DNA from: Dehalococcoidia bacterium
Lineage (GTDB): Bacteria; Chloroflexota; Dehalococcoidia; Lucifugimonadales; UBA2985
Assembly: GCA_965204895.1 (NCBI GenBank)
Contig: OZ242025.1
Location: forward strand, 428,902-492,901
DNA length: 64,000 nucleotides
Reading direction: 5' to 3'
This document shows, piece after piece, positions 3,163-15,084 of the stretch. A program made the position numbers and the translations under genes. How positions within the stretch are numbered: position 1 is the first letter of the stretch; each line of letters opens with the position of its first letter. The notes below the pieces were generated by a model. That model ran no database searches. It worked only from the letters and a program-made list of their open reading frames with translations, and was not told the DNA's origin.

Positions 3163-3995
3163 AGCCTCGCCATAAGCACCAGCTTCTCCCCGGTGCTGAG
3201 ACTCACCCTCTTGCCGAACACGTTGTAGCCGGACGCCTCTATGCGGTCCAGCAGCCGGCTGTATGTCCCGTGAAGCACGGCGGGGCACGCCCTTGACCGG
3301 GGCGACAGCAGAGGCAGAAGCCGTTTGCCATTCCTGAAGTACTCACGGGCCCGCTCCACCTGGAACCTCATCAGGTCTCTGAAGTTGTCGTTCACCCTTC
3401 CCTGGAATATGTCCTCCTCGGAGCAGCCAAAGCGGGCAAGCTCCTCCTGTGGAATGTACACTCTGTCCCGCTCCATATCCTCCTCCACGTCCCGGAGGAT
3501 GTTGGTCAGCTGCATTGCCAGCCCCAGGTCAACCGCGTGCTCCCTGGCGTCCGGGTCGTCATAACCGAATATCTCTATGCAGACCAGCCCCACCGAAGAA
3601 GCCACGCGGTAGCAGTACTCCCTCAGCTCCTCGAAGGTGGCGTACCGCGTTTTGGAGATGTCCATCTCGACGCCGTTAATCACCTCTTCAAGGTACTCCA
3701 TCGGGATGCCGTAGGTGTCGATGGCGTCCTGAAGCGCAACGTACACCTGTCCCTCCGGTCGGCCTGCGCCCGCGCCTGCAAGCAGCGCCCGTTGCTCGGC
3801 CACCAGGCGCAGCTTCTCCTCAACCTCTGTGTAGTCGTCCGTGGCGTCGTCGCACAGGCGGCAGAAGGCGTAGGCGGCGTAGATCGCCCTGCGCTTCTCG
3901 GCAGGCAGGGTGATGAAGGCGTAGTAGAAGTTCTTGGCGCGCTCCTTGGTGAGCCTGCGACAATACTCGTACGCCTGGTCCAGCTCACTGGCCAT
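3123..3995 (-). CDS. hpnD: presqualene diphosphate synthase (squalene/phytoene synthase family)
   Basis: AKNFYYAFITLPAEKRRAIYAAYAFCRLCDDATDD and NILRDVEEDMERDRVYIP Asp-rich motifs. ATG 3995 is preceded by GGGAG; the track start at 4013 is a GTG. Confidence 0.8.
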   Translation of the reverse strand: MASELDQAYEYCRRLTKERAKNFYYAFITLPAEKRRAIYAAYAFCRLCDDATDDYTEVEEKLRLVAEQRALLAGAGAGRPEGQVYVALQDAIDTYGIPMEYLEEVINGVEMDISKTRYATFEELREYCYRVASSVGLVCIEIFGYDDPDAREHAVDLGLAMQLTNILRDVEEDMERDRVYIPQEELARFGCSEEDIFQGRVNDNFRDLMRFQVERAREYFRNGKRLLPLLSPRSRACPAVLHGTYSRLLDRIEASGYNVFGKRVSLSTGEKLVLMARLWANGIAARASGR

Positions 3996-4023: not shown

Positions 4024-4911
4024 TCAGATTACTCTCTTCAGCTTCATCCTGGCCGCCGTGCTTGCGACAAGCCGCGCCCTGGACACCTTGGAAAGCGTTG
4101 GGCGGCGACTTAGCACGTCGTAGTTCCGGCGCTCTATTGCCTTCAGTATGTGCAGCCCGCCCAGTGTGAACAGGGCGATGTCCAGCCGCACGACGCCCTT
4201 CACCTTGTCCACCAGCCCTGCGCCCTCGTCGAATAGGCCCCTGGCGCGGTCAACCTGGAACCGCATAAGCTCCCTGAAGGAGTCGTCGGCAACCCCGGTC
4301 TGCAGCTTCTCCTCCGTGTACCCAAAGCGCTCCATGTCCTCCTGTGGAATGTAGACGCGGCCCATGTCCCAATCCCGGCGCACGTCCTGCCAGAAGTTGG
4401 TCAGCTGTAGCGCAGTGCAGGTGGCGTCCGCAAGACGCTGCCGCTCCTCATCCCTGTAACCGAACAGGTACAGGAACAGGTGCCCCACGGGGTTGGCGGA
4501 GTGGTCGCAGTAGTGGAGCAGGTCACCGTAGGTCTCGTGGCGATGCGCACGCTGGTCCATGCGGTTGGCCTCAACCAGCTTCAGGAACGGCTCCCTGGGA
4601 ATGTCGAAGCGGCTTATCGTCTCACGGAGCGCCACGGCGATGGGGTGAGTGGGTGTGGAGTCGTAGCAGCTGCGCAGCTCCTCCTCCCACCGGTCCAGGA
4701 GGCTCAGCCGGTCGCCGGGGGACTCGTCCCCCAGGTCGTCTACGAAGCGGCAGAAGGCGTAGACGGCGTAGACGTGGGGCCGCTTCTCCCTGGGAAGGAA
4801 CCACGAGGCCACGGTGAAGTTCTCGTAGTGAGACTTGGCGAGCTTTCGACAATACTCATACGATTGCTCCACGCTCCACCGGCCGCGAGCGTCCGCAGTG
4901 AGGGACTCCAT
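4024..4911 (-). CDS. hpnC: hydroxysqualene synthase (squalene/phytoene synthase family)
   Basis: YENFTVASWFLPREKRPHVYAVYAFCRFVDDLGDE and QLTNFWQDVRRDWDMGRVYIPQED motifs. First gene of the hpnCDE order. Confidence 0.8.
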   Translation of the reverse strand: MESLTADARGRWSVEQSYEYCRKLAKSHYENFTVASWFLPREKRPHVYAVYAFCRFVDDLGDESPGDRLSLLDRWEEELRSCYDSTPTHPIAVALRETISRFDIPREPFLKLVEANRMDQRAHRHETYGDLLHYCDHSANPVGHLFLYLFGYRDEERQRLADATCTALQLTNFWQDVRRDWDMGRVYIPQEDMERFGYTEEKLQTGVADDSFRELMRFQVDRARGLFDEGAGLVDKVKGVVRLDIALFTLGGLHILKAIERRNYDVLSRRPTLSKVSRARLVASTAARMKLKRVI

Positions 4912-4923
4912 GTGGCGCTTCCG

Positions 4924-5367
4924 TCACTCGCCCAGGATCTGGATCAGGACCTCCCTGGGTCGAGGCATATCCAACTCAATGAGAAAGACCCTCTGCCACC
5001 TGCCCAGCTGAAGCTGGCCGTTCACAATGGGTATGTTCTCGCTGGTGCCGAGCAAAAGATGCTGGCAGTGCGCGTGGCCGTTTGGACACTCGTCCGGGGT
5101 CATGTTCACCGTGCGTATGGAGAAGTCGTTGTGCTGGTAGTGGCCGTTGCGGGAGGCCACCTTCTCCAGGAACTCCGTCATGTCGTTAAGGAGGAGAGGC
5201 TCGTTCTCGTTTATTCTGATAGCAGCGGTGGTGTGCTTGGAGTACACTACGGCGAAGCCGTTTTGCACCTCCGAGTCCTTGACGTACCCGCAAATCCCGT
5301 CCGTGATATCCACGAACTCCGGCGCCTTTGTGGTGTCCATCTTGATACAGTAGGTATTTGCTTTCAT
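4924..5367 (-). CDS. yjbQ: YjbQ/UPF0047 family protein (secondary thiamine-phosphate synthase-type)
   Basis: 147 aa. Family motifs VDITD, HTTAAIRINENE and GHAHCQHLLLG. 12 nt upstream of hpnC. Confidence 0.85.
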   Translation of the reverse strand: MKANTYCIKMDTTKAPEFVDITDGICGYVKDSEVQNGFAVVYSKHTTAAIRINENEPLLLNDMTEFLEKVASRNGHYQHNDFSIRTVNMTPDECPNGHAHCQHLLLGTSENIPIVNGQLQLGRWQRVFLIELDMPRPREVLIQILGE

Positions 5368-5459
5368 TACCCTGTCAGTCTCCTTGCCCTAGCTGGTCTA
5401 CCGCAGCTACAGAATGTTAACCTAGCATAACGATGTATTTTTTGCAACATATTTACCAA

Positions 5460-5517: not shown

Positions 5518-6567
5518 CTATCGCTCGCGAGTCAGAAGGAACTCCACAAGCTCCTCCATCTCCTCTCGAGCGCGCTCCGTAGTCGATACGCTCTGCAGCG
5601 CCTCCTGCGCCAGGGCGGCCTGCTGCTGGGCCAAACTCTCTACGTACTCCGATACGCCCAGCTGCTCCAGCAGCCCCATCATCGAGGCGACGTCCCGGTC
5701 GTCCACCTCCTCCTTGGCGTAGATGGAATTTATCTGCTCCCTCTCTCCGCTCCCGGCCCTCTCCATCGCATACACCAGGGGCAGCGAGTTCTTCTTCCTG
5801 CGCAGGTCGCTGCCAATCGGCTTGCCCGTCTCCTCTTCACGGCCCCAGATGCCCAGGTAGTCGTCACGTATCTGGAAGGCGAGACCCAGGTACCGGCCGC
5901 ACTGGGACATAGCCTGTACGGTCTCCGCATTTCCGCTGCCCACCAGTGACCCCATGTGCATGGAGCAGCGAATCAGCGCCCCCGTCTTCCGGGCGATCAT
6001 CTCCAGGTAGGCGGCGGTGTCCACGTCCGTCCGCCCCTCGAAGTCCATGTCCAGGTACTGACCCTCTATCATCTCCAGGTAGGCGTCGCTCAGCGCCCGG
6101 CTGCACCCGGTCACCACTTCTGCCGACAGCCTTTCGCCGATGACCCGCTGCACGCCCATGTCCGCCATGACCCGCATGACGTTCCCCGCCTGTAGCGCCT
6201 TGGGCTTGCCCCATACGGCCCACACCGTAGGCCGATGGTGGCGCTGCAGGTCGCCGTCCTGGATGTCGTCGTGGATGAGGGAGAAGTTGTGCACCAGCTC
6301 CAGGGCCGCGGCCGCCGGAAGCGCCTGCTCCGGCAAGCCGCCCACGGCCTCGCAGGCGAACATGCAGAGGGAGGGTCGCAGCCGCTTGCCCTGGCTCAGC
6401 GCAGTGGGCCGCCCGCTCTCATCCACCCGGCCCATGTGGTACCTGAGCATTGTGGACACGTCCGGGTCGTTGGGAGCCAGAAGCGCGTCCAGCGCCTCCT
6501 CAACCCCGTCCAGGTACTTGCGCAGAATGGCTGGGGTGGTGTCTATGCGGTTGCCCTGGGCATTCAC
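5518..6567 (-). CDS. polyprenyl diphosphate synthase (FPP/GGPP synthase family)
   Basis: 349 aa. First and second Asp-rich motifs LIHDDIQD and FQIRDDYLG. Confidence 0.85.
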   Translation of the reverse strand: MNAQGNRIDTTPAILRKYLDGVEEALDALLAPNDPDVSTMLRYHMGRVDESGRPTALSQGKRLRPSLCMFACEAVGGLPEQALPAAAALELVHNFSLIHDDIQDGDLQRHHRPTVWAVWGKPKALQAGNVMRVMADMGVQRVIGERLSAEVVTGCSRALSDAYLEMIEGQYLDMDFEGRTDVDTAAYLEMIARKTGALIRCSMHMGSLVGSGNAETVQAMSQCGRYLGLAFQIRDDYLGIWGREEETGKPIGSDLRRKKNSLPLVYAMERAGSGEREQINSIYAKEEVDDRDVASMMGLLEQLGVSEYVESLAQQQAALAQEALQSVSTTERAREEMEELVEFLLTRER

Positions 6568-6759: not shown

Positions 6760-7995
6760 CTACCCGCCCTCCGCCTCCTCCCCAATGAGGCGCTCTGCGT
6801 AGCCCATGAGCGCCTCTGCCCTCTCCGCCGGCACTTTCGCCGTCTCCAGGTACAGGCGCAGAGCCTCCTGCGGCGACAGCCCCTCCACCCTCGCCGCCCC
6901 CAGCCGCGTGCGACGCTCCCTGGTCACCTCCCGTACTATGGGCGCAACGTAGCGGGCCTCCGACAGCGCAGCCCGCACCTCGCTCTCCCGCAGCTGCGCC
7001 TCCACCTCCTGGGGCATGGTTATCCGCACTCTGACTATCGCGCCCTCGACGTGGCTGCGGCCAATGGCCTTGAGCGCCTCTTCCGTCGGGTCTTCGTCGG
7101 CATCGACCGCCACCTCTATCGTGAGGAAGCGGCGGGCGTTGACGTGCTGAAACCGGAAGTCGACGAGACGCCGGCCCCGGGGCGCGGACGCGTCCAGGTC
7201 GATGACGCAGAAGCCCTTGTCGTCGCCCTCTTCGCCAAAGTCGATGCGCTCCAGGCTGCCGGGGTAGACCACGTGCGGGTTGGTGGAGAGAACCTGGTGC
7301 CTGTGGATGTGGCCCAGGGCAACGTAGTCCAGCTCAGGGCGGGCAAGGGCGCTCTGCATGATGACGGGGTCACGGCCCAGGAGCATGGACTGCTCCGAGC
7401 TTGTGCGGGCGGTGTTCAGGGAGACGTGGGCTGTCAGGACCGCAGGCGCGGCGGGGTCAAGGCTCTCTATCTGCCAGGCCAGCAGCGTTGTGACCCGCTC
7501 CTCAAGCTGCCGGTTAATCTCCTCGATGGTGAGGCTGCGGGTCTCCTCCCTGGCCAGGAAGGCGCTGCGCATTATCCAGGGCAGGGCGACTATCTGCACC
7601 GGGCCGGCGGCGGTGTGCACCACGTAGGTGTCCAGCCTGTCGCCGATGGTGACGTTGGGGACGGAGAGCGTTGGGAAGATGTCCAGGGCCGTAGCGCGGC
7701 TGGCGATGTGGGGCAGGTCGTGGTTGCCCACCAGCAGGAAGACGGGCACGCCCTCCCGGGAGAGGCGGGCTATGCGCCTGGCGAACTCCCTCTGGTGGGT
7801 CTGCGACGGGTCGCGGCTCTTGTAGGCGTCGCCGGCAAATAGGACAAGGTCTACGGCGTTGTCCAGGGCGAAGTCCACCACCTCGTCGAAGGTGGACAGG
7901 AAGTCCATTAGCCGGGCGCTGAGGCCCGTCGACGGGTCGGTAGAGCCGTAGCTCTCGACGCCTATGTGAACGTCCGCGAAGTGCAGAATGCGCAT
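6760..7995 (-). CDS. sbcD: exonuclease SbcCD subunit D (Mre11-type metallophosphoesterase)
   Basis: MRILHFADVHIG..., GDAYK and LLVGNHD phosphoesterase motifs. ATG 7995 with GGGAGG 10 nt upstream; the track start at 8013 overlaps hicA. Confidence 0.8.
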   Translation of the reverse strand: MRILHFADVHIGVESYGSTDPSTGLSARLMDFLSTFDEVVDFALDNAVDLVLFAGDAYKSRDPSQTHQREFARRIARLSREGVPVFLLVGNHDLPHIASRATALDIFPTLSVPNVTIGDRLDTYVVHTAAGPVQIVALPWIMRSAFLAREETRSLTIEEINRQLEERVTTLLAWQIESLDPAAPAVLTAHVSLNTARTSSEQSMLLGRDPVIMQSALARPELDYVALGHIHRHQVLSTNPHVVYPGSLERIDFGEEGDDKGFCVIDLDASAPRGRRLVDFRFQHVNARRFLTIEVAVDADEDPTEEALKAIGRSHVEGAIVRVRITMPQEVEAQLRESEVRAALSEARYVAPIVREVTRERRTRLGAARVEGLSPQEALRLYLETAKVPAERAEALMGYAERLIGEEAEGG

Positions 7996-7997
7996 GG

Positions 7998-8216
7998 CTA
8001 CAGCGCCTCCCACTCCTCCCGGCTGATGCCGGCCTCTCGGAGTATTCGTGTCAAGAATTCCCTACTTATATCACCTCGGTGGGGATTGGGAATCCACACA
8101 CGCCTTTGACCTCGCTGCATATATTGGTGGCGTCCGCCCGGAAATGGGCCTTCAAAGCCTGCGCGTCGGAGGGCGGCAATGAGGTCTGGCCTGGATATTG
8201 GGCCAACGCGCGGCAA
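7998..8216 (-). CDS. hicA: HicA-family toxin (YcfA-like mRNA interferase), copy 1
   Basis: 72 aa; ISRPDLIAALRRAGFEGPFPGGRHQYM...IPNPHRGDISREFLTRILREAGIS matches the HicA pattern. Directly follows hicB, and its stop is 2 nt from the sbcD ATG. Confidence 0.8.
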   Translation of the reverse strand: MPRVGPISRPDLIAALRRAGFEGPFPGGRHQYMQRGQRRVWIPNPHRGDISREFLTRILREAGISREEWEAL

Positions 8217-8459
8217 CTAGGCAGTTACCTTAACGTTGATATCAAGGCCGTCTACAACTGGAACGTCGAAGCCGCGGGAGATAGAGAAGAGCAGCCACTC
8301 ATCCAGAACATCTTCCAACTCAGCGCGGCACTCTTCAAGGGTATCTGCATTGTAGTAGACACCATCAAAACCCGGTATCCTCCCGAAAAAGGAGCCGTCA
8401 TCACTCAGGATTTCGTATTCAGCCTTGGCCATTGCCGCGGCGATGTATTCTCTTACCAT
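8217..8459 (-). CDS. hicB: HicB-family antitoxin (a-type), copy 1
   Basis: 80 aa. MVREYIAAAMAKAEYEILSDDGSFFGRIPGFDGV...TLEECRAELEDVLDEWL is the typical short HicB/UPF0150 pattern. Abuts hicA with no gap. Confidence 0.8.
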   Translation of the reverse strand: MVREYIAAAMAKAEYEILSDDGSFFGRIPGFDGVYYNADTLEECRAELEDVLDEWLLFSISRGFDVPVVDGLDINVKVTA

Positions 8460-8526
8460 GGCTTTCCTCCTCAGTGCAATGCTATCCGGCAGGCGGCGGC
8501 TGTGTACAGCGAGGTTGGAGCGGCGG

Positions 8527-8784
8527 TCAGTCCTCTATGTCTTCTATGGCTTCACCGAACTTAAGATCCAAGCCGTCAAGGACAGGCACGTCTATGCCAC
8601 TGTATACTCGGAAGAGCGCCCAATGCTCCAGAACCTCCTCCAGCGTATTGCGGCACTCCGCAAGCGTCTTGGCGCTGGCCTGTACGCCCTCGAAGCCGGG
8701 GATCTCACCATAGTAGGAGCCATCCTCCGGGAGCGTCTTGTACTCTGCCCTCCTCATGGCTGCGTCCAGGTATTCTCGGATCAT
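8527..8784 (-). CDS. HicB-like protein (b-type paralogue), copy 1
   Basis: ORF 8527..8943 trimmed to the ATG at 8784 (MIREYLDAAMRRAEYKTLPEDGSYYGEIPGFEGV...). Own TACAAT and GGAGG upstream. Confidence 0.75.
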   Translation of the reverse strand: MIREYLDAAMRRAEYKTLPEDGSYYGEIPGFEGVQASAKTLAECRNTLEEVLEHWALFRVYSGIDVPVLDGLDLKFGEAIEDIED

Positions 8785-8827
8785 GGTGTGCCTCCGGGGG
8801 TCATTGTACCGCGAGCACCTACGGACT

Positions 8828-8980
8828 ACCAGTTGAAGTGGAGTTCTATCCCGTCGCCGTCCCAGGGCAATGACTCCACCCACGCCCATACCTCCGAGGT
8901 TTGCTGAGGCCCGTCGACGGGTCGGTGGAGCCGTAGCTCTCAACGCCTATGTGAACGTCAGCGAAGTGCAGAATGCACAT
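8828..8980 (-). pseudogene. duplication scar: first 26 codons of sbcD fused to the last ~23 codons of the 95-aa gene
   Basis: 8903-8982 is 76/80 nt identical to 7918-7997, including the ATG. 8828-8902 translates in another frame to SEVWAWVESLPWDGDGIELHFNW*, compared with the C-terminus of ORF 9775..10062. Confidence 0.75.
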
Positions 8981-8982
8981 GG

Positions 8983-9201
8983 CTACAGCGCCTCCCACTC
9001 CTCCCGGCTGATGCCGGCTTCTCTGAGGACGTCCGCCAACAGCTCTCTTCCTATATCACCTCGGTGGGGGTTGGGAATCCGGACACGCCTTTGGCCTTTA
9101 ATCATGACTTGGTGGCGTCCAGCCGGAAATGGGCCGTCAAAGCCTGCGCGCCGGAGGGCCGCGATAAGACGTCGCCTGGATATGGGGCCAAAGCGCGGCA
9201 A
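8983..9201 (-). CDS. hicA: HicA-family toxin, copy 2
   Basis: 72 aa, 58/72 identical to copy 1 by hand count. Confidence 0.8.
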   Translation of the reverse strand: MPRFGPISRRRLIAALRRAGFDGPFPAGRHQVMIKGQRRVRIPNPHRGDIGRELLADVLREAGISREEWEAL

Positions 9202-9444
9202 CTAGGCAGTTACCCTGATATTGATATCAATGCCATCCACGACGGGAACGTCTAAGTTGCGGGAGATGGAGAAGAGCAACCACACCTCAAGAACCTCCTC
9301 CAGTTCAGTGCGGCACTCCTCAAGCGTGTCGTTGTTGGCCCACACTCCCTGGAAGCCTGGTATCCTGCCGAAAAAAGAGCCGTCTTCCTCATAGATCTTG
9401 TACTCCGCCTTGGCCATTGCCGCGGATATGTACTCTCGTATCAT
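9202..9444 (-). CDS. hicB: HicB-family antitoxin (a-type), copy 2
   Basis: ORF 9202..9531 trimmed to the ATG at 9444 (MIREYISAAMAKAEYKIYEEDGSFFGRIPGF...). 61/80 identical to copy 1. TACAAT and GGAGG upstream. Confidence 0.8.
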   Translation of the reverse strand: MIREYISAAMAKAEYKIYEEDGSFFGRIPGFQGVWANNDTLEECRTELEEVLEVWLLFSISRNLDVPVVDGIDINIRVTA

Positions 9445-9487
9445 TGCCCACCTCCGGCGCTTATTGTACCACGCTGGCGGCGGCGCG

Positions 9488-9736
9488 CTAATCGTCCACC
9501 GCTTCCCCGAACTTGAGATCCATGCCGTCAAGGACAGGCACGTCTATGCCGCGGTATACTCGGAGGAGAGCCCAATGCTCCAGAACCTCCTCCAGCGTAT
9601 TGCGGCACTCCGCAAGAGTCTTGGCGCTGGCCTGTACGCCCTCAAAACCGGGAATCTCGCCATAGAAGGAGCCGTCCTCCGGGAGGGTCTTGTACTGCGC
9701 CCTAGCCATTGCCGCGTCAAGGTATTCTCGGATCAT
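9488..9736 (-). CDS. HicB-like protein (b-type paralogue), copy 2
   Basis: 82 aa, about 90% identical to 8527..8784. TACAAT -10 upstream at about 9757-9762. Confidence 0.75.
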   Translation of the reverse strand: MIREYLDAAMARAQYKTLPEDGSFYGEIPGFEGVQASAKTLAECRNTLEEVLEHWALLRVYRGIDVPVLDGMDLKFGEAVDD

Positions 9737-9774
9737 GGTGTGCCTCCGGGGATAATTGTACCGCGTGAGAGCGG

Positions 9775-10062
9775 CTACCAGTTGAAATGCAACTCTATTT
9801 CATCCCCGTCCCAAGGCAGAGACTCCACCCAAGCCCAAATCTCCAACGTCTGTTCGTCGGTCAAGTTCTGGTTGTCTGCAAACTCGTATAGCAAATGACC
9901 TATGTGGGGCTTGGTGAAGTGTCCTAGGCTGTTCCCTTCCCCGCTCATAGTTCCGTAGACGCTGGCCTCGTGGGCCAACTCCTTAGCGAATTCATATTTG
10001 ATGCCGCGTGGGAGTTCCACGGGCTGAATGCTCATAATCCCGATGCGCAGGCTCATTGCCAC
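9775..10062 (-). CDS. hypothetical small protein (no family recognised)
   Basis: 95-aa ORF 90 nt downstream of the AIPR gene. A conserved C-terminal fragment recurs in the scar at 8828-8902. The start may be the internal ATG (MSIQPVEL...). Confidence 0.5.
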   Translation of the reverse strand: MAMSLRIGIMSIQPVELPRGIKYEFAKELAHEASVYGTMSGEGNSLGHFTKPHIGHLLYEFADNQNLTDEQTLEIWAWVESLPWDGDEIELHFNW

Positions 10063-10152
10063 CCTCCCGCAAATGATGGAACTGGACCTTATCGGACCCG
10101 GGGCGGGATGTCAAGGGGAAGTCATCAACAAGACAGACAGCTAGGATAAAAC

Positions 10153-11967
10153 TTATTGCGGCAAGAGTGCACTCGGGTCTCTTCCAGCGTCGGCCTCTAC
10201 CACGAGTTCATTTGCAAATGCTTCATAAAGAAGCTCTTTGGGATTGACCCCGGGAATCAACTCCGACGAAGCCCTAAAGAAGTCCCTCCGATCCATAGTT
10301 TCTTCTCCACCGGAGATATTCTGGGCTCGCCGAAAAGCTAACATGCATGCCGTATTAGCAATCCTTGCTAAAGAAGGGAGCCAATCATCAATAGAGTCTA
10401 TCAGTTTTCGGGTCAGAGTTACACTAAAATACTGCGTCCTCGTTAGTTTGTTACTCCTTCTGAGAAAGTCGGCTATCAGCCAGATTGTATGGAATGTTGA
10501 GAATTTCTCCCTTTTCGCAGAGTTTTTTTGCAAGTAGTCTAGAATACGCCACGGAAGCAACAACTGGCGTGCCATGACACCCGAAGGAAAGGCCGTTTCA
10601 TAGGTCTCTCGTTCATCTTTATTTCTGATACCCTCAAAAACAAAGCGGACGCGGTCTAATGCCAAATCAGGTTTGCCAAGGAATGCAAGCGAAGCCTGAG
10701 CCAAAGGTTGCACCTCTATATGACGCTTCCGCTTGCCCACCAAGAACTTGGTCTTCTCGGTGTCGTCTAGAACCATCTTCCAGTATCCTTGCTTCACCTC
10801 ATAGTACCAAGGAGGGGTTATTTCTTCCCTAAATTCGTATTGCAAGATCGTCTGCTGTTTTTCAAAAGCTGCATAGTCTCGCGCTCTTAGCGCAGTTTGG
10901 GAATTTGAGGCAATAGCAATTTTTTCTGCAAGTACCCTGTCAGCCACGGTAAGCTTAATGTCAACCAGCGTTTCTTCAAGCTCTTCGAGAGGTCTATCCT
11001 TTTCCGCTAGAGTCACAGTGGTCTGACAGCCATTCACAATCTGGAGATTCTTGACCGTGAGCCGTTTGCCATCCAAGATGAAGTCGTCACACGTAGCACA
11101 AAGACCGTTGTTGAGAAGATGAAACCGCTTGCGTCCTTCTTCTGTTTTCAATTCCGATGCGATGTTCCTGTTAACCTTTGCATTGGCAAGCGGGCCTCTC
11201 GGATTTAGTGAGAAGAGACGGTAGCCCAAGCCCGGCGTATTGAAGATGCGTACTATTTCGCTGGCCCTTACCGTTACTCTAAGTGACCTTTGTTCATCCC
11301 CTTCAACGGGATGCTGCATACGCTCGTCTATTGTCAATTCGGCTGTAGTATCACCTCCAGTGCGATAACCGGCGCGGTAGTCCTCAAACCGCTGTGCCAA
11401 ATCCTTTTCATTTAGCAACTCGAGAGTAAAGCTACAATCAATCGTCTCACCGTTTCTCAAGACCAATGTGCGCTCTAACTGACGCCTAGATTGAGCAAAG
11501 CGAACAGCTGCTTGTTCAAAACCACCCCTTGCTGCAAACACCAACCGTAGTGTGTAGCCATCTCCTTCCACGAGATTAAGTCTCTCGTTCAATTGCAACG
11601 ATAGTTCCTTCACCGATTCATTGTTGCTAGCATCCACTCGTGAGGGGTTCAGTACCTCTTCAGGAGCCATCCAAAATTTTGAGACCTTGCCTTCTGTAGC
11701 ACGGCTCTTGCCGCCTTGGCTTTGGAACAGAAGTATGTTTTCGTCTTGATCATCTATAAAGTAGCCGTCAATCTCGAGATCGCCACTCTTGTCTATACCC
11801 GTGATCTCAATTATCCGTCGGTCTGCCACATTCGGGTCCGGAAGAGTGAGTTGGAGTGCCGCATGTCGAAAGGCCTGGGTTTCGTCTTCCTCATAATACG
11901 TAGCGGCCAATTCGCTAACATGGCTACGGAAGCTCTCTAGAATGCGTCTTTCTTCACTCGAAGCCAT
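10153..11967 (-). CDS. AIPR-family protein (abortive infection phage resistance family)
   Basis: 604 aa. Recognised family motifs LLNNGLCATCDDF and LQIVNGCQTTVTL, and typical length. GC is about 42-45% in spot counts. Confidence 0.75.
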   Translation of the reverse strand: MASSEERRILESFRSHVSELAATYYEEDETQAFRHAALQLTLPDPNVADRRIIEITGIDKSGDLEIDGYFIDDQDENILLFQSQGGKSRATEGKVSKFWMAPEEVLNPSRVDASNNESVKELSLQLNERLNLVEGDGYTLRLVFAARGGFEQAAVRFAQSRRQLERTLVLRNGETIDCSFTLELLNEKDLAQRFEDYRAGYRTGGDTTAELTIDERMQHPVEGDEQRSLRVTVRASEIVRIFNTPGLGYRLFSLNPRGPLANAKVNRNIASELKTEEGRKRFHLLNNGLCATCDDFILDGKRLTVKNLQIVNGCQTTVTLAEKDRPLEELEETLVDIKLTVADRVLAEKIAIASNSQTALRARDYAAFEKQQTILQYEFREEITPPWYYEVKQGYWKMVLDDTEKTKFLVGKRKRHIEVQPLAQASLAFLGKPDLALDRVRFVFEGIRNKDERETYETAFPSGVMARQLLLPWRILDYLQKNSAKREKFSTFHTIWLIADFLRRSNKLTRTQYFSVTLTRKLIDSIDDWLPSLARIANTACMLAFRRAQNISGGEETMDRRDFFRASSELIPGVNPKELLYEAFANELVVEADAGRDPSALLPQ

Positions 11968-11997: not shown

Positions 11998-12246
11998 TTA
12001 TACCCTAACTTGCAGATACAGGCCCTCTTCCCTACTCTCCTCACGGGGAATCTCATCTCCCTCCAGCGCCAGGCACTCCAAATGGAACGACAGCATGTCC
12101 TGGATGTTCTTGAGCGCTTCCTGGCCGTCCTTACCCTGGTCTGCCAGGTTAAGAGTCGGAACCTCGGCTATAGACTGTCCCGTCTCAGCATCGTATGAGA
12201 GGACTACCCTGTAGCGGTATAGGTCTTGATTCTGCATTTCTTTCAC
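11998..12246 (-). CDS. HicB_lk/UPF0150-type antitoxin-like protein, no adjacent HicA
   Basis: 82 aa. YRYRVVLSYDAETGQSIAEVPTLNLADQGKDGQEALKNIQDMLSFHLECLALEGDEIP matches the HicB N-terminal domain pattern. GTG start; an ATG alternative lies at 12237. Confidence 0.65.
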   Translation of the reverse strand: MKEMQNQDLYRYRVVLSYDAETGQSIAEVPTLNLADQGKDGQEALKNIQDMLSFHLECLALEGDEIPREESREEGLYLQVRV

Positions 12247-12527: not shown

Positions 12528-13073
12528 GTGCCCAGAGGAGGAAAAAGACCCGGCGCCGGAGCGCCCCCGGGAAACCTCAACGCCGTCAAACACGGCAACT
12601 ACTCCAGGAGACTCCGGCTATTCCTCCGGCTGGCAGAAGACACCCCCATCATAAAAGAGCACTTCATACGGCTCCTCAACCTGCTCCTGGGCAGACGCCG
12701 ACACGCCCGTCGCATCTCCAGGACCGACTACCTACGACTACTCAAATCCCTCAAGAACGTGCCAAACCCAGAAATGAATCGCGCCATCGACTCCCTGCTG
12801 CGGGGACTCCAGGCAAGAGCCGAAGAAACTTCAAAAAAAGTCATCCCGCCAGCCATGAATCAATCAAAGAAGAGGTCAAGAAAACAAAAAAACCAACCGA
12901 AAGTGGACGTTCCAATCGTAAACAATCAAAAACTAAAGCTTCAGACCTTTGATTGTTCCATCCCCTGCAGAGAAGGCACAGCCCTTATGGATGAAACCCT
13001 CGGTCTCCCCGCTCATGGTGAACCCCTCAAACCATTCCACGGGGCGAGAGAATCCCGAACGGAGCCTACGTGA
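12528..13073 (+). CDS. hypothetical basic protein; the 3' part is probably REP-derived
   Basis: GTG start with GGGAGG 7 nt upstream. N-terminus MPRGGKRPGAGAPPGNLNAVKHG followed by Arg/Lys-rich helices. The tail from about 12990 looks like repeat sequence, so the true stop is uncertain. Confidence 0.4.
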   Translation: MPRGGKRPGAGAPPGNLNAVKHGNYSRRLRLFLRLAEDTPIIKEHFIRLLNLLLGRRRHARRISRTDYLRLLKSLKNVPNPEMNRAIDSLLRGLQARAEETSKKVIPPAMNQSKKRSRKQKNQPKVDVPIVNNQKLKLQTFDCSIPCREGTALMDETLGLPAHGEPLKPFHGARESRTEPT

Positions 13074-13134: not shown

Positions 13135-13356
13135 TCAGGAAGGCTGCTTGACGCCGTATTCCTCAAAGGTCATCTCCCGGATGGCGTCCAGATCATCGAA
13201 GTGTACGCTGGCATACAGGATCTCTATACCTACCAGGCGGCCTTCTACATCATAGTCCAGCGCCACGCCCGTCGATTCGTCGAACTCTGTTCTGAAGGTG
13301 CCCTTACGCAGTCGTATGTATATGGCATCTGCTTTAGGGTCATAAGTTACGTGCAT
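13135..13356 (-). CDS. DUF2283 domain protein
   Basis: 73 aa. MHVTYDPKADAIYIRL...GRLVGIEIL is the DUF2283 signature. Confidence 0.8.
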   Translation of the reverse strand: MHVTYDPKADAIYIRLRKGTFRTEFDESTGVALDYDVEGRLVGIEILYASVHFDDLDAIREMTFEEYGVKQPS

Positions 13357-13367
13357 AACGCCCTCCT

Positions 13368-13622
13368 TTAGAAATAGTACCCGATAACCGTAATAACTAC
13401 AATTTCGGACGCCTCTTCGACGAAGATGGGTTGAACTCGCTTAGTGGCATAATAGCGCTCTTTCCAATAGTCATTAAAGTCAAAATTCTTAGCACATTCC
13501 ATTCTACCGTACTTTGCGGGCCCCCACGCAGAGGTCTGTATGGCGTCCTCGACCTCTTCTGCAGTCACTCCCCTCTCTATCAACTGGCCCCCGGCGTGGA
13601 TTGTGAACGTGATCGGCTTCAC
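13368..13622 (-). CDS. DUF4258 domain protein
   Basis: 84 aa. ITFTIHAGGQLIERGVTAEEVEDAI resembles the DUF4258 N-terminal pattern. GTG start with GGGGAGAGG upstream, 8 nt after the glyQS stop. Confidence 0.7.
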   Translation of the reverse strand: MKPITFTIHAGGQLIERGVTAEEVEDAIQTSAWGPAKYGRMECAKNFDFNDYWKERYYATKRVQPIFVEEASEIVVITVIGYYF

Positions 13623-13630
13623 CCTCTCCC

Positions 13631-14923
13631 CTACCCCGCCAGCCGCGCGCTCAGCGTGTCCAGCAGCTCTGGGATGGGGACGCGGGTCTGCTCCATGGTG
13701 TCACGGTCGCGGATGGTGACGGCGTCGTCCTCCTCAATGGTCTTGAAGTCCACCGTCACGGCCAGGGGCGTGCCGATCTCGTCCTGGCGGCGGTAGCGGC
13801 GGCCTATGGACTGGGCGTCGTCGTACTGGGCCGCAAAGCGATTTCGCACCATGTCGTACACCTCCCGGGCCCTGGGCACCAGCCTCTCGTTGCGGCTCAG
13901 GGGCAGCACGGCCACCTTCACCGGGGCAATGGCCGGATGCAGGTGGAGCACCACGCGGGTGTCCCCCTCAACCGTCTCCTCGTCATAAGCGTCAAAGAGG
14001 AATACCAGCAGGGCGCGGTCAACGCCCAGGGCCGGCTCCACAACGTAGGGCACAACATGCTCCTTGGTCTCGTCGTCGTAGTAGTCCAGCCGCTCGCCGC
14101 TGTGCGTGGAGTGGGCCTTCAGGTCAAAGTCCGTGCGGTTGGCAATGCCCATCAGCTCGCCCCAGCCCCACGCAAAGCTGTACTCGATGTCGTAGGTGGC
14201 CTTGGAGTAGTGGGAGAGCTCCTCGTCGGTGTGCTGTCGCAGTCGAAGCCGGTCTGGTCGAATGCCCAGGTCCGTGAACCAGGACATGAAGTCGTCCATC
14301 CAGCGCTGGTGCCACTCCTGGTCTGTGCCGGGCTTGACGAAGTACTCAATCTCCATCTGCTCGAACTCCCGGGTGCGAAAGGTGAAGTTGCCCGTTGTGA
14401 TCTCGTTGCGGAAGGACTTGCCAATCTGCCCGATGCCGAAGGGCAGCCGCTTGCGAGTGGCGGTCAGCACGTTCTGGAAGTTGACGAAGATGCCCTGGGC
14501 CGTCTCCGGGCGCAGGTAGGCCTGGGAAGCCGAGTCCTCCACCGGCCCGATGAACGTCTTGAACATGAGGTTGAAGTTGCGCGGCTCCGTGAGGCTGCCG
14601 TCGCAGTCGGGGCAGGCGTCCGCCGACTCCAGGTGGTCGGCGCGGTAGCGCTGGTTGCACTTACGGCACTCCACCAGAGGGTCGGTGAAGGTGTCCGCGT
14701 GGCCGGAGGCCACCCACACCTGGGGGTGCATGAGGATGGCGGCGTCCAGGCCCACCATGTCGTCCCTGTCCTGGATGAAGCGCTTCCACCAGGAGTCGCG
14801 GATGTTTCGCTTCAGCTCAATACCCAGGGGGCCGTAGTCGTACGTGGAAGCCAGGCCTCCGTAGATCTCGCTGGACTGGAAGATGAAGCCCCTGCGCTTG
14901 CACAGCGACACGATTTTGTCCAT
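13631..14923 (-). CDS. glyQS: glycine--tRNA ligase (dimeric class II type)
   Basis: MDKIVSLCKRRGFIFQSSEIYGGLASTYDYGPLG...; class II motifs FRNE and GIGQ...R. Trimmed from the TTG at 14992 to the ATG at 14923. Confidence 0.9.
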   Translation of the reverse strand: MDKIVSLCKRRGFIFQSSEIYGGLASTYDYGPLGIELKRNIRDSWWKRFIQDRDDMVGLDAAILMHPQVWVASGHADTFTDPLVECRKCNQRYRADHLESADACPDCDGSLTEPRNFNLMFKTFIGPVEDSASQAYLRPETAQGIFVNFQNVLTATRKRLPFGIGQIGKSFRNEITTGNFTFRTREFEQMEIEYFVKPGTDQEWHQRWMDDFMSWFTDLGIRPDRLRLRQHTDEELSHYSKATYDIEYSFAWGWGELMGIANRTDFDLKAHSTHSGERLDYYDDETKEHVVPYVVEPALGVDRALLVFLFDAYDEETVEGDTRVVLHLHPAIAPVKVAVLPLSRNERLVPRAREVYDMVRNRFAAQYDDAQSIGRRYRRQDEIGTPLAVTVDFKTIEEDDAVTIRDRDTMEQTRVPIPELLDTLSARLAG

Positions 14924-15084
14924 TTCAACCCGGTCCAGACTGCGATTCACGGCGCGCCTCCAGAGGTGAATTTGTGGGAATGAAGTTACCAAGTTCGCCG
15001 TGAGTTGTAAAGGGAGAGGCTGCGCCCGGATTCTAAGGCGGACACAATATGGAATGGATTAGGCCAGTTTCCCCAGAACGACTC

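Follow-up and report, generated by a model that had tools for sequence, protein, structure and literature searches.

HicAB toxin-antitoxin modules pair an RNase toxin, HicA, with HicB, whose RNase-H-like domain keeps the toxin inactive. Paralogous toxin-antitoxin pairs are common in genomes, and they are usually assumed to arise by duplication and then to diverge in a way that avoids cross-talk. Here we analyzed a tandem array of two hicB-hicB-hicA units upstream of sbcD in a 64,000-nt stretch of a Dehalococcoidia bacterium genome (assembly GCA_965204895.1, contig OZ242025.1, positions 428,902 to 492,901 of the forward strand), which is called the window below and whose own numbering is used throughout. 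We read the array as a real and recent join, mediated by microhomology, of two units that had diverged beforehand as alleles, and we put the probability of this reading at about 0.85.

HicA has been described as an RNA-cleaving toxin with a dsRBD-like fold that is neutralized by the RNase-H-like domain of HicB (PMC2701414), and a C-terminal RHH or HTH domain is frequent, although not universal, in HicB (Makarova et al., 2009; PMC2701414). That paralogous toxin-antitoxin pairs are insulated from one another is an idea found in ParD-ParE work (PMC7669267) and in a review (PMC7354431). In homology-facilitated illegitimate recombination, foreign DNA is joined at 3-10 bp of microhomology beside good homology (PMC6382021); the same source summarizes the process in naturally transformable bacteria from de Vries & Wackernagel, 2002 and Prudhomme et al., 2002.

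Related loci, designated by L numbers, were collected by an SbcD scan of species-representative genomes, which gave 35 loci, the 15 closest (67-98% aa identity) being metagenome-assembled genomes (MAGs) of Dehalococcoidia/Chloroflexota, and by exact-protein look-ups of HicBa homologues, which gave 17 further loci. The array and the genes that border it are as follows.

6760-7995, minus strand: sbcD, full, encoding an SbcD/Mre11-family nuclease subunit (TIGR00619, 163.7 bits with a cut-off of 77.65; Metallophos)
7998-8216, minus strand: hicA1, 72 aa, with a TTG start that abuts the hicBa1 stop (PF07927, E 2e-8; PDB 1WHZ, E 2e-5)
8217-8459, minus strand: hicBa1, 80 aa, UPF0150-type HicB (PF21748, E 8e-27; PDB 2DSY, E 5e-15)
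8527-8784, minus strand: hicBb1, 85 aa, second UPF0150-type HicB (PF21748, E 7e-25)
8826-8909, minus strand: orf95 3′ fragment, last 24-26 codons plus stop (8826-8828), of the L006/L055 allele type
8903-8980, minus strand: sbcD 5′ fragment, 26 codons, 74/78 nt identical to 7918-7995 and placed after the hicA2 stop and CC in the manner of the real sbcD
8983-9201, minus strand: hicA2, 72 aa, TTG start (PF07927, E 3e-8)
9202-9444, minus strand: hicBa2, 80 aa (PF21748, E 2e-28)
9488-9736, minus strand: hicBb2, 82 aa (PF21748, E 3e-25)
9775-10062, minus strand: orf95, full, 95 aa, of an allele type different from that of the fragment; orthologues lie upstream of hicBb at many loci

These genes resemble the type II HicAB systems (COG1724/COG1598; PMC2701414) in the small HicA with PF07927 and an invariant His, in the UPF0150 or partial RNase-H-like domain of HicB, and in their adjacent, co-oriented, mobile and patchily distributed genes. 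They differ in that the antitoxin gene comes first, two HicB paralogues accompany each HicA, the HicBs have just 80-85 aa and lack an RHH or HTH domain, the TTG start of hicA abuts the hicB stop, and the hicA stop abuts the sbcD start. HicA1 and HicA2 match PF07927 with 34.7 and 34.0 bits (cut-off 27) over profile positions 2-58 of 58. The UPF0150 domain (PF21748) was found in all four HicBs (E of order 1e-25 to 1e-28) and was the sole domain matched, with no C-terminal RHH or HTH DNA-binding domain in these 80-85-aa proteins; homologues are named 'RNase H-like HicB family nuclease' by the Joint Genome Institute (JGI). Among solved structures, 1WHZ (Thermus thermophilus, HicA-like) is nearest to HicA, and 2DSY (T. 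thermophilus TTHA0281) is nearest to HicB. In both units, as in all alleles, the hicBa stop abuts the hicA start (TAG-TTG). Between hicBb and the hicBa downstream of it there are 43-67 nt. In every allele the hicA stop is 2 nt ahead of the sbcD ATG, as in the window, where the sbcD ATG lies 2 nt beyond the hicA1 stop (TAG-CC-ATG).

The anatomy of the array was observed directly. Self-BLASTN of 7000-10500 returned two direct matches, 7918-8459 with 8903-9444 (82.1% over 547 nt, E 8e-132) and 8549-8895 with 9501-9844 (86.7% over 347 nt, E 5e-109), which bears out the two collinear tandem units of the original prediction, a model's reading of the bare sequence. The order on the minus strand is orf95, hicBb2-hicBa2-hicA2, sbcD fragment, orf95 fragment, hicBb1-hicBa1-hicA1 and sbcD. 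Recomputation returned the per-segment identities that had been aligned by hand (sbcD fragment 74/78 nt, HicBb 74/82 aa, HicA 58/72 aa, HicBa 61/80 aa), and alignment placed the TAG-CC-ATG junction of hicA and sbcD in both units. The orf95 fragment is present as described, but its coordinates needed a 2-nt correction, from 8828-8902 to 8826-8900 with the stop at 8826-8828. It differs from the full orf95 (9775-9849) at 16/72 nt, with proportions of synonymous (pS) and nonsynonymous (pN) differences of 0.89 and 0.07. The synonymous excess reported for this scar thus stands (P about 3e-4 under a model in which one copy decays neutrally), while the counts shift from about 10 and 3 to ~12 synonymous and 4 nonsynonymous. 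Also as predicted, no start codon feeds the frame of the fragment: there is no ATG, GTG or TTG past the upstream stop.

The junction itself is a 7-nt microhomology, CCTCAGC, at 8903-8909 on the minus strand, and is clean, collinear and in direct orientation, with no Ns. CCTCAGC is common to sbcD nt 72-78 and the homologous position of orf95 of the L006/L055/L057 type. At the homologous place, the orf95 alleles nearest to the scar (L055 and L006/L057) read ...CCCTCAGCA(A/G)ACCTCGGAG... and sbcD reads ...GGGCCTCAGCGCC..., and across the junction the window has the chimera GGGCCTCAGCAAACCTCGGAG. The full orf95 of the window carries CGACGAACAGACG at that place, not CCTCAGC, and therefore could not have supplied it; the microhomology is recoverable only from the orf95 allele type of the relatives. 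The chance of a microhomology of at least 7 nt at a random join is about 4e-4. From the sbcD start, a chimeric 44-codon open reading frame (ORF; 8846-8980, minus strand) runs out of frame into the orf95 fragment, giving MCILHFADVHIGVESYGSTDPSTGLSKPRRYGRGWSHCPGTATG followed by a stop, and by its sequence would probably be translated as a junk peptide. Translation of the orf95 fragment was considered and rejected, since its frame has no start codon and the ORF from the sbcD start crosses it out of frame.

The two units belong to different allele lineages, and neither their hicA nor their hicBa genes are sisters. Unit 1 together with the orf95 scar aligns unbroken with L006 at 90% nt identity over 1085 nt, a divergence equal to that of the flanking sbcD, and hicBa1 and hicA1 are 93% and 92% identical in nt to L006. 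The alignment of unit 2 with L041 is contiguous and takes in the short 43-nt hicBb-hicBa spacer, which bears no relation to the spacer of 67 nt found in unit 1, L001, L005 and L006. HicBa2 is 91% identical in aa to L005 and 89% to L041/L043, versus 76% to HicBa1, and HicBb2 is 95% identical in aa to L005/L043/L044. The nearest alleles of hicA2 are those of L041/L042 at 81.9% nt, versus 81.5% for hicA1. In neighbor-joining trees, hicBa and hicBb fall into two separate deep clades, one for each gene, hicA1 and hicBa1 are sisters of L006, and hicA2 and hicBa2 group with L041/L042. For hicBb the comparison is equivocal: the window copies are 85.8% identical to each other versus 87.0% and 85.4% to other alleles, and hicBb1 and hicBb2 are nearly identical over nt 96-170. 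The orf95 fragment has 8-10/72 nt differences from L055/L006 versus 16/72 from the window's own orf95. The sbcD fragment is equally close to L004 and to 7918-7995; gene conversion was considered for its ~95% identity and found unneeded, because this segment is 88-95% identical across all alleles.

The scars have barely decayed. Compared with 22 functional orf95 alleles (16 distinct), the orf95 scar has 0/72 private nt and no private aa. A random substitution would be private at 44 effective sites of this scar, which bounds its neutral decay at ≤0.068 per site (95% bound); at a divergence (d) of 0.16, the probability of finding no private base would be 9e-4. The sbcD scar has 2/78 private nt (T at nt 4 and T at nt 39), which gives d of about 0.035, and R2C is among its private changes, in a codon invariant in 28 other compared sequences. 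A codon-aware comparison of the units by segment, as proposed in the original prediction, gave uneven pS, 0.32 for hicBb, 0.57 for hicBa and 0.36 for hicA. The join is thus much younger than the divergence of the units. The synonymous excess in orf95 follows because the fragment and the full gene represent two alleles that diverged under selection, one of which was truncated only recently. The original prediction had proposed, as weak evidence, that two functional loci diverged first and that the join followed; this holds, as each unit is closer to single-copy relatives at the same locus elsewhere, the scar is synonymous-biased, and its lack of private substitutions among functional alleles points the same way.

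The interval between glyS and sbcD, hereafter the island, is variable in the relatives. glyS is 90-96% identical in nt to all related loci, and the interval ranges from 0.4 to 5.6 kb; the closest genome, L004, is 94-96% identical in both flanks and has an interval of 0.4 kb versus 5.6 kb in the window. Island GC is 46-61% versus 65-68% in the flanks, and the cargo varies by genome, comprising AIPR/AbiU, type II restriction-modification, SocA/Panacea, DUF2283 pairs and transposases. Both single-copy and variable-copy states, which the original prediction had suggested looking for, were seen at the orthologous locus. Across about 25 related Dehalococcoidia loci, the usual state upstream of sbcD is one hicBb-hicBa-hicA unit (L001, L005, L006, L041-L044, L046-L048 and L050-L057), and hicA is truncated at L049. 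Only hicBa-hicA is present at L010 and L011, a lone hicB at L003, L004 and L007, and neither hicA nor hicB at L008, L009 and L012-L014; L045 has four hicB and one hicA. The pair of an sbcD start and an orf95 end was found in the window only among about 40 loci. The 90% cluster of HicBa2 has one member, with no further assembly of unit 2 in that collection, and a scan of metagenome contigs with HicBa2 returned only relatives of ≤55% identity, with no second array and no donor. Exact-protein look-ups of the window's HicBa1, HicBb2 and HicBa2 matched no indexed contig. Modules upstream of hicBb are swapped between near-identical loci (L052/L056 versus L053/L057).

Several other loci have rearrangements of their own. 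L045 carries four tandem hicB genes (82, 80, 80 and 80 aa) followed by hicA at 4110-5459, of which the two middle genes form their own long tree branch, and two tandem pairs of orf82 and a HicA-like gene further upstream (50-1026). In L028, a distant Chloroflexota MAG (455-1062), hicB (539-751) and hicA (748-981) lie directly upstream of sbcD (995), and the opening 34 nt of sbcD are repeated ahead of hicBA (463-496, 33/34 identical). Here a hicBA cassette is flanked, independently of the window, by a repeat of the sbcD start. Truncated 3′ remnants of orf95 are found just upstream of hicBb at L054 (~3770-3820) and L045 (3887-4042 and 2986-3081), where the full orf95 is missing, which indicates that breaks inside orf95 recur at this hot spot. 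L002 has a 132-aa hicB-like ORF and a partial hicA upstream of sbcD (5600-5998), an arrangement that looks like a fused or decayed cassette.

The adjacent HicA and HicBa are the most divergent pair between the units, a pattern that the original prediction described as what insulation of paralogous pairs would produce. Insulation after duplication was not supported as its cause, since single-copy alleles show the same ranking. Among single-copy allele pairs (n=27), median aa identity is 0.85 for HicBb, 0.80 for HicBa and 0.78 for HicA, and median pN is 0.09, 0.11 and 0.14, respectively; the identities between units 1 and 2 (0.90, 0.76 and 0.81) lie inside the single-copy range. None of the three genes shows a sign of positive selection, pN/pS between units being 0.16-0.36. 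The genes are also unequal in synonymous divergence, which suggests alleles of mosaic history rather than proteins that changed faster. The uneven divergence belongs to the locus itself, and the allele comparison does not call for insulation selection after duplication.

By their sequences both units look functional, with 6/6 ORFs intact and the allele-invariant residues all kept. All differences between HicA1 and HicA2 and between HicBa1 and HicBa2 fall at positions variable among alleles, and HicA1 keeps all 34 positions invariant among 12 alleles. The RHQ motif has its His conserved without exception, in 12/12 alleles and in both window HicA copies; from knowledge of the family, we take it to be the equivalent of the catalytic His in studied HicAs.

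As to how the array arose, we infer that DNA of two strains underwent one unequal exchange, and we give this one-step stacking of two pre-diverged alleles about an even chance. At one end, homology in a conserved flank would have served as the anchor; at the other, the sbcD start after unit 2 would have been joined at CCTCAGC to the L006-type orf95 end before unit 1; the outcome would be two diverged hicBb-hicBa-hicA alleles head to tail in a variable toxin-antitoxin/defence island. By analogy, the route would resemble homology-facilitated illegitimate recombination, and the conserved flanks at hand for an anchor are glyS and sbcD (90-96% nt); neither a crossover point nor a donor was located. 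Several observations weigh against our reading or its single step. The sbcD fragment is of the window/L004 type, not the L041 type, and hicA2 and hicA1 do not differ over their last ~42 nt; a two-step history, which we hold possible and distinctly less probable than the single exchange, therefore fits equally well. In it, tandem duplication at CCTCAGC in an L006-type genome would have come first, and foreign alleles would then have replaced orf95 along with most of the upstream unit. It explains the microhomology equally well, and the hicA2 3′ end together with the sbcD fragment, a stretch of about 120 nt that is of the window/L004 type and has 97% identity to unit 1, suits it as the expected remainder to the right of the crossover. 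The centre of hicBb2 (nt 96-210) resembles unit 1 and L006, and hicBb1 and hicBb2 share three bases absent from other alleles (nt 60, 177 and 207); both features favor two steps, and the three window-only sites hint at a small post-joining exchange or gene-conversion tract between the units. The module swaps between L052/L056 and L053/L057 indicate that allelic replacement is frequent at the locus. Two rare events would be required, however; the right crossover would have to hit short homology, as the long homology of the real sbcD would replace the whole array, and there is no genome with two same-type units among the about 40 loci. Also weighing against a strain-to-strain join, a close donor for unit 2 was not found (best 85-87% nt), and DNA uptake, by natural competence or otherwise, is only assumed for the Dehalococcoidia host.

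Each array protein is known from a single 2,443,739-bp contig, with no independent assembly and no read support, which further tells against a real join and raises the question of an assembly chimera, in which island alleles of co-existing strains were concatenated and the array exists in no cell. Pristine scars and strain-level allele differences would also be expected from a false haplotype join, and related samples do hold several allele types together (e.g., L043-L045 from ERZ21830300). A false haplotype switch, however, would occur at a homologous position and duplicate nothing; an end-to-end contig join is unlikely to fall inside a 7-nt microhomology (about 4e-4), graph assemblers require shared words far above 7 nt, and the clean, collinear, direct junction contains no Ns. 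We regard a chimera as quite improbable. An old duplication in place, after which selection against cross-talk would have pushed HicA and HicBa apart and the single-copy relatives would each have lost a copy, is close to refuted. It draws on hicBa and hicA being the most divergent genes between the units, on the variable hicB copy number at the locus (L045), and on the insulation of paralogous toxin-antitoxin pairs as an established idea (PMC7669267 and PMC7354431). Equally old scars, however, should hold many private changes (P ≤9e-4 for 0/72 at d = 0.16), the units are not mutual nearest relatives, single-copy alleles diverge just as unevenly where no paralogue is present, and pN/pS is 0.16-0.36. 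A recent join of pre-diverged alleles remains our preferred reading.

With regard to expression, a motif consisting of a putative -10-like element and a Shine-Dalgarno sequence was found upstream of three of the hicB genes.

8791-8810, minus strand: GGTACAAT-N5-CCGGAGG motif, -10-like element plus Shine-Dalgarno, upstream of hicBb1
9451-9470 and 9743-9762, minus strand: GGTACAAT-N5-CCGGAGG motif, upstream of hicBa2 and hicBb2

These are the 3 matches in the window, versus 0.01 expected. The motif lies about 20 nt upstream of hicB starts and is conserved at many loci despite unrelated upstream DNA, for example after a restriction enzyme gene at L052/L056; hicBa1-type genes have a TAGAAT/TAGCAT variant in place of GGTACAAT. 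A strict scan for sigma-70 promoters and terminators found nothing on the coding strand. It is the conservation of the motif that suggests a promoter role, and since it persists across unrelated upstream DNA, we infer that each unit probably has its own transcription start. The weak TTG start of hicA abutting the hicBa stop would hold toxin output below antitoxin output. As both HicBs lack an RHH or HTH domain, autoregulation, if any, would work differently.

The remaining features of the island and its left border are listed below.

10153-11967, minus strand: AIPR/AbiU-like gene (PF10592, E 3e-35; PADLOC AbiU, E 2e-29; 46-50% GC)
11998-12246, minus strand: orf82, HicB-like, no Pfam match (weak match to PDB 2YZT, Thermus TTHA1756, E 0.005)
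12528-13073, plus strand: basic 181-aa ORF inside the island, with only a weak PADLOC match (PD-Lambda-5_A, E 0.001)
13368-13622 and 13135-13356, minus strand: two small co-oriented genes of 84 aa and 73 aa that adjoin glyS
13631-14992, minus strand: glyS, glycine-tRNA ligase (NF003211, 659 bits), the conserved left border of the island

The AIPR/AbiU-like gene has a GC content of 46-50% versus about 65-68% for the genome; its relatives at other loci are 28% to 81% identical in aa, and some are inverted or disrupted by a transposase (L047). The orthologue of orf82 in L014 and L045 is followed by a HicA-like gene, and in the window the AIPR/AbiU gene comes directly next. Orthologues of the 73-aa gene beside glyS are labeled DUF2283 and a neighbor matches DUF4258 faintly, and the two small genes at 13135-13622 may be another toxin-antitoxin-like pair. 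orf95 has no match in Pfam, NCBIfam or PADLOC. sbcD, whose orthologues in Dehalococcoidia MAGs are 75-98% identical in aa, has no adjoining sbcC, and a polyprenyl synthase gene lies downstream. There are no tRNA genes in the window, which rules out the island as a tRNA-linked integration site.

Duplication followed by divergence is the usual route assumed for paralogous pairs, and this locus records another, in which long-separated alleles are combined in one or two steps and a new pair may be distinct from the start. In these Dehalococcoidia the glyS-sbcD interval stands out as a hot spot of recombination where allelic diversity is old. The HicB:HicA gene ratio is 2:1 in the window and 4:1 in L045, and L003/L004/L007 have HicB only. 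It is a doubtful generalization, which we offer as speculation, that toxin-antitoxin paralogues in this clade arise by stacking of old co-circulating glyS-sbcD alleles, already distinct, at joins on the hicA-sbcD boundary, and that the surplus of HicB genes protects against HicA alleles that come in, as an array for immunity or anti-addiction. The locus is of limited practical importance, as the family is known and this is a single case in one MAG without read support.

Three described processes come closest to the array. With microhomology-mediated tandem duplication it shares collinear direct repeats, a junction fusing truncated flanking genes and a 7-nt microhomology, but the copies here were not identical at birth or have become different since: they belong to separate allele lineages behind a young junction, and for hicA and hicBa they are not each other's closest relatives, as copies of a single template would be. 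Like insulated toxin-antitoxin paralogues, the two pairs are of the same family, share a genome and have many differing positions in both toxin and antitoxin; unlike in such paralogues, their divergence pre-dates co-residence and carries no signal of positive selection. The 7-nt microhomology and the conserved flanks glyS and sbcD recall homology-facilitated illegitimate recombination, of which the classic cases delete recipient DNA, whereas here the result would be a duplication-like stacking in which anchor, donor and uptake are presumed. The gene family and the class of rearrangement are already known, and the unusual feature is how clearly the junction and its scars record the event.

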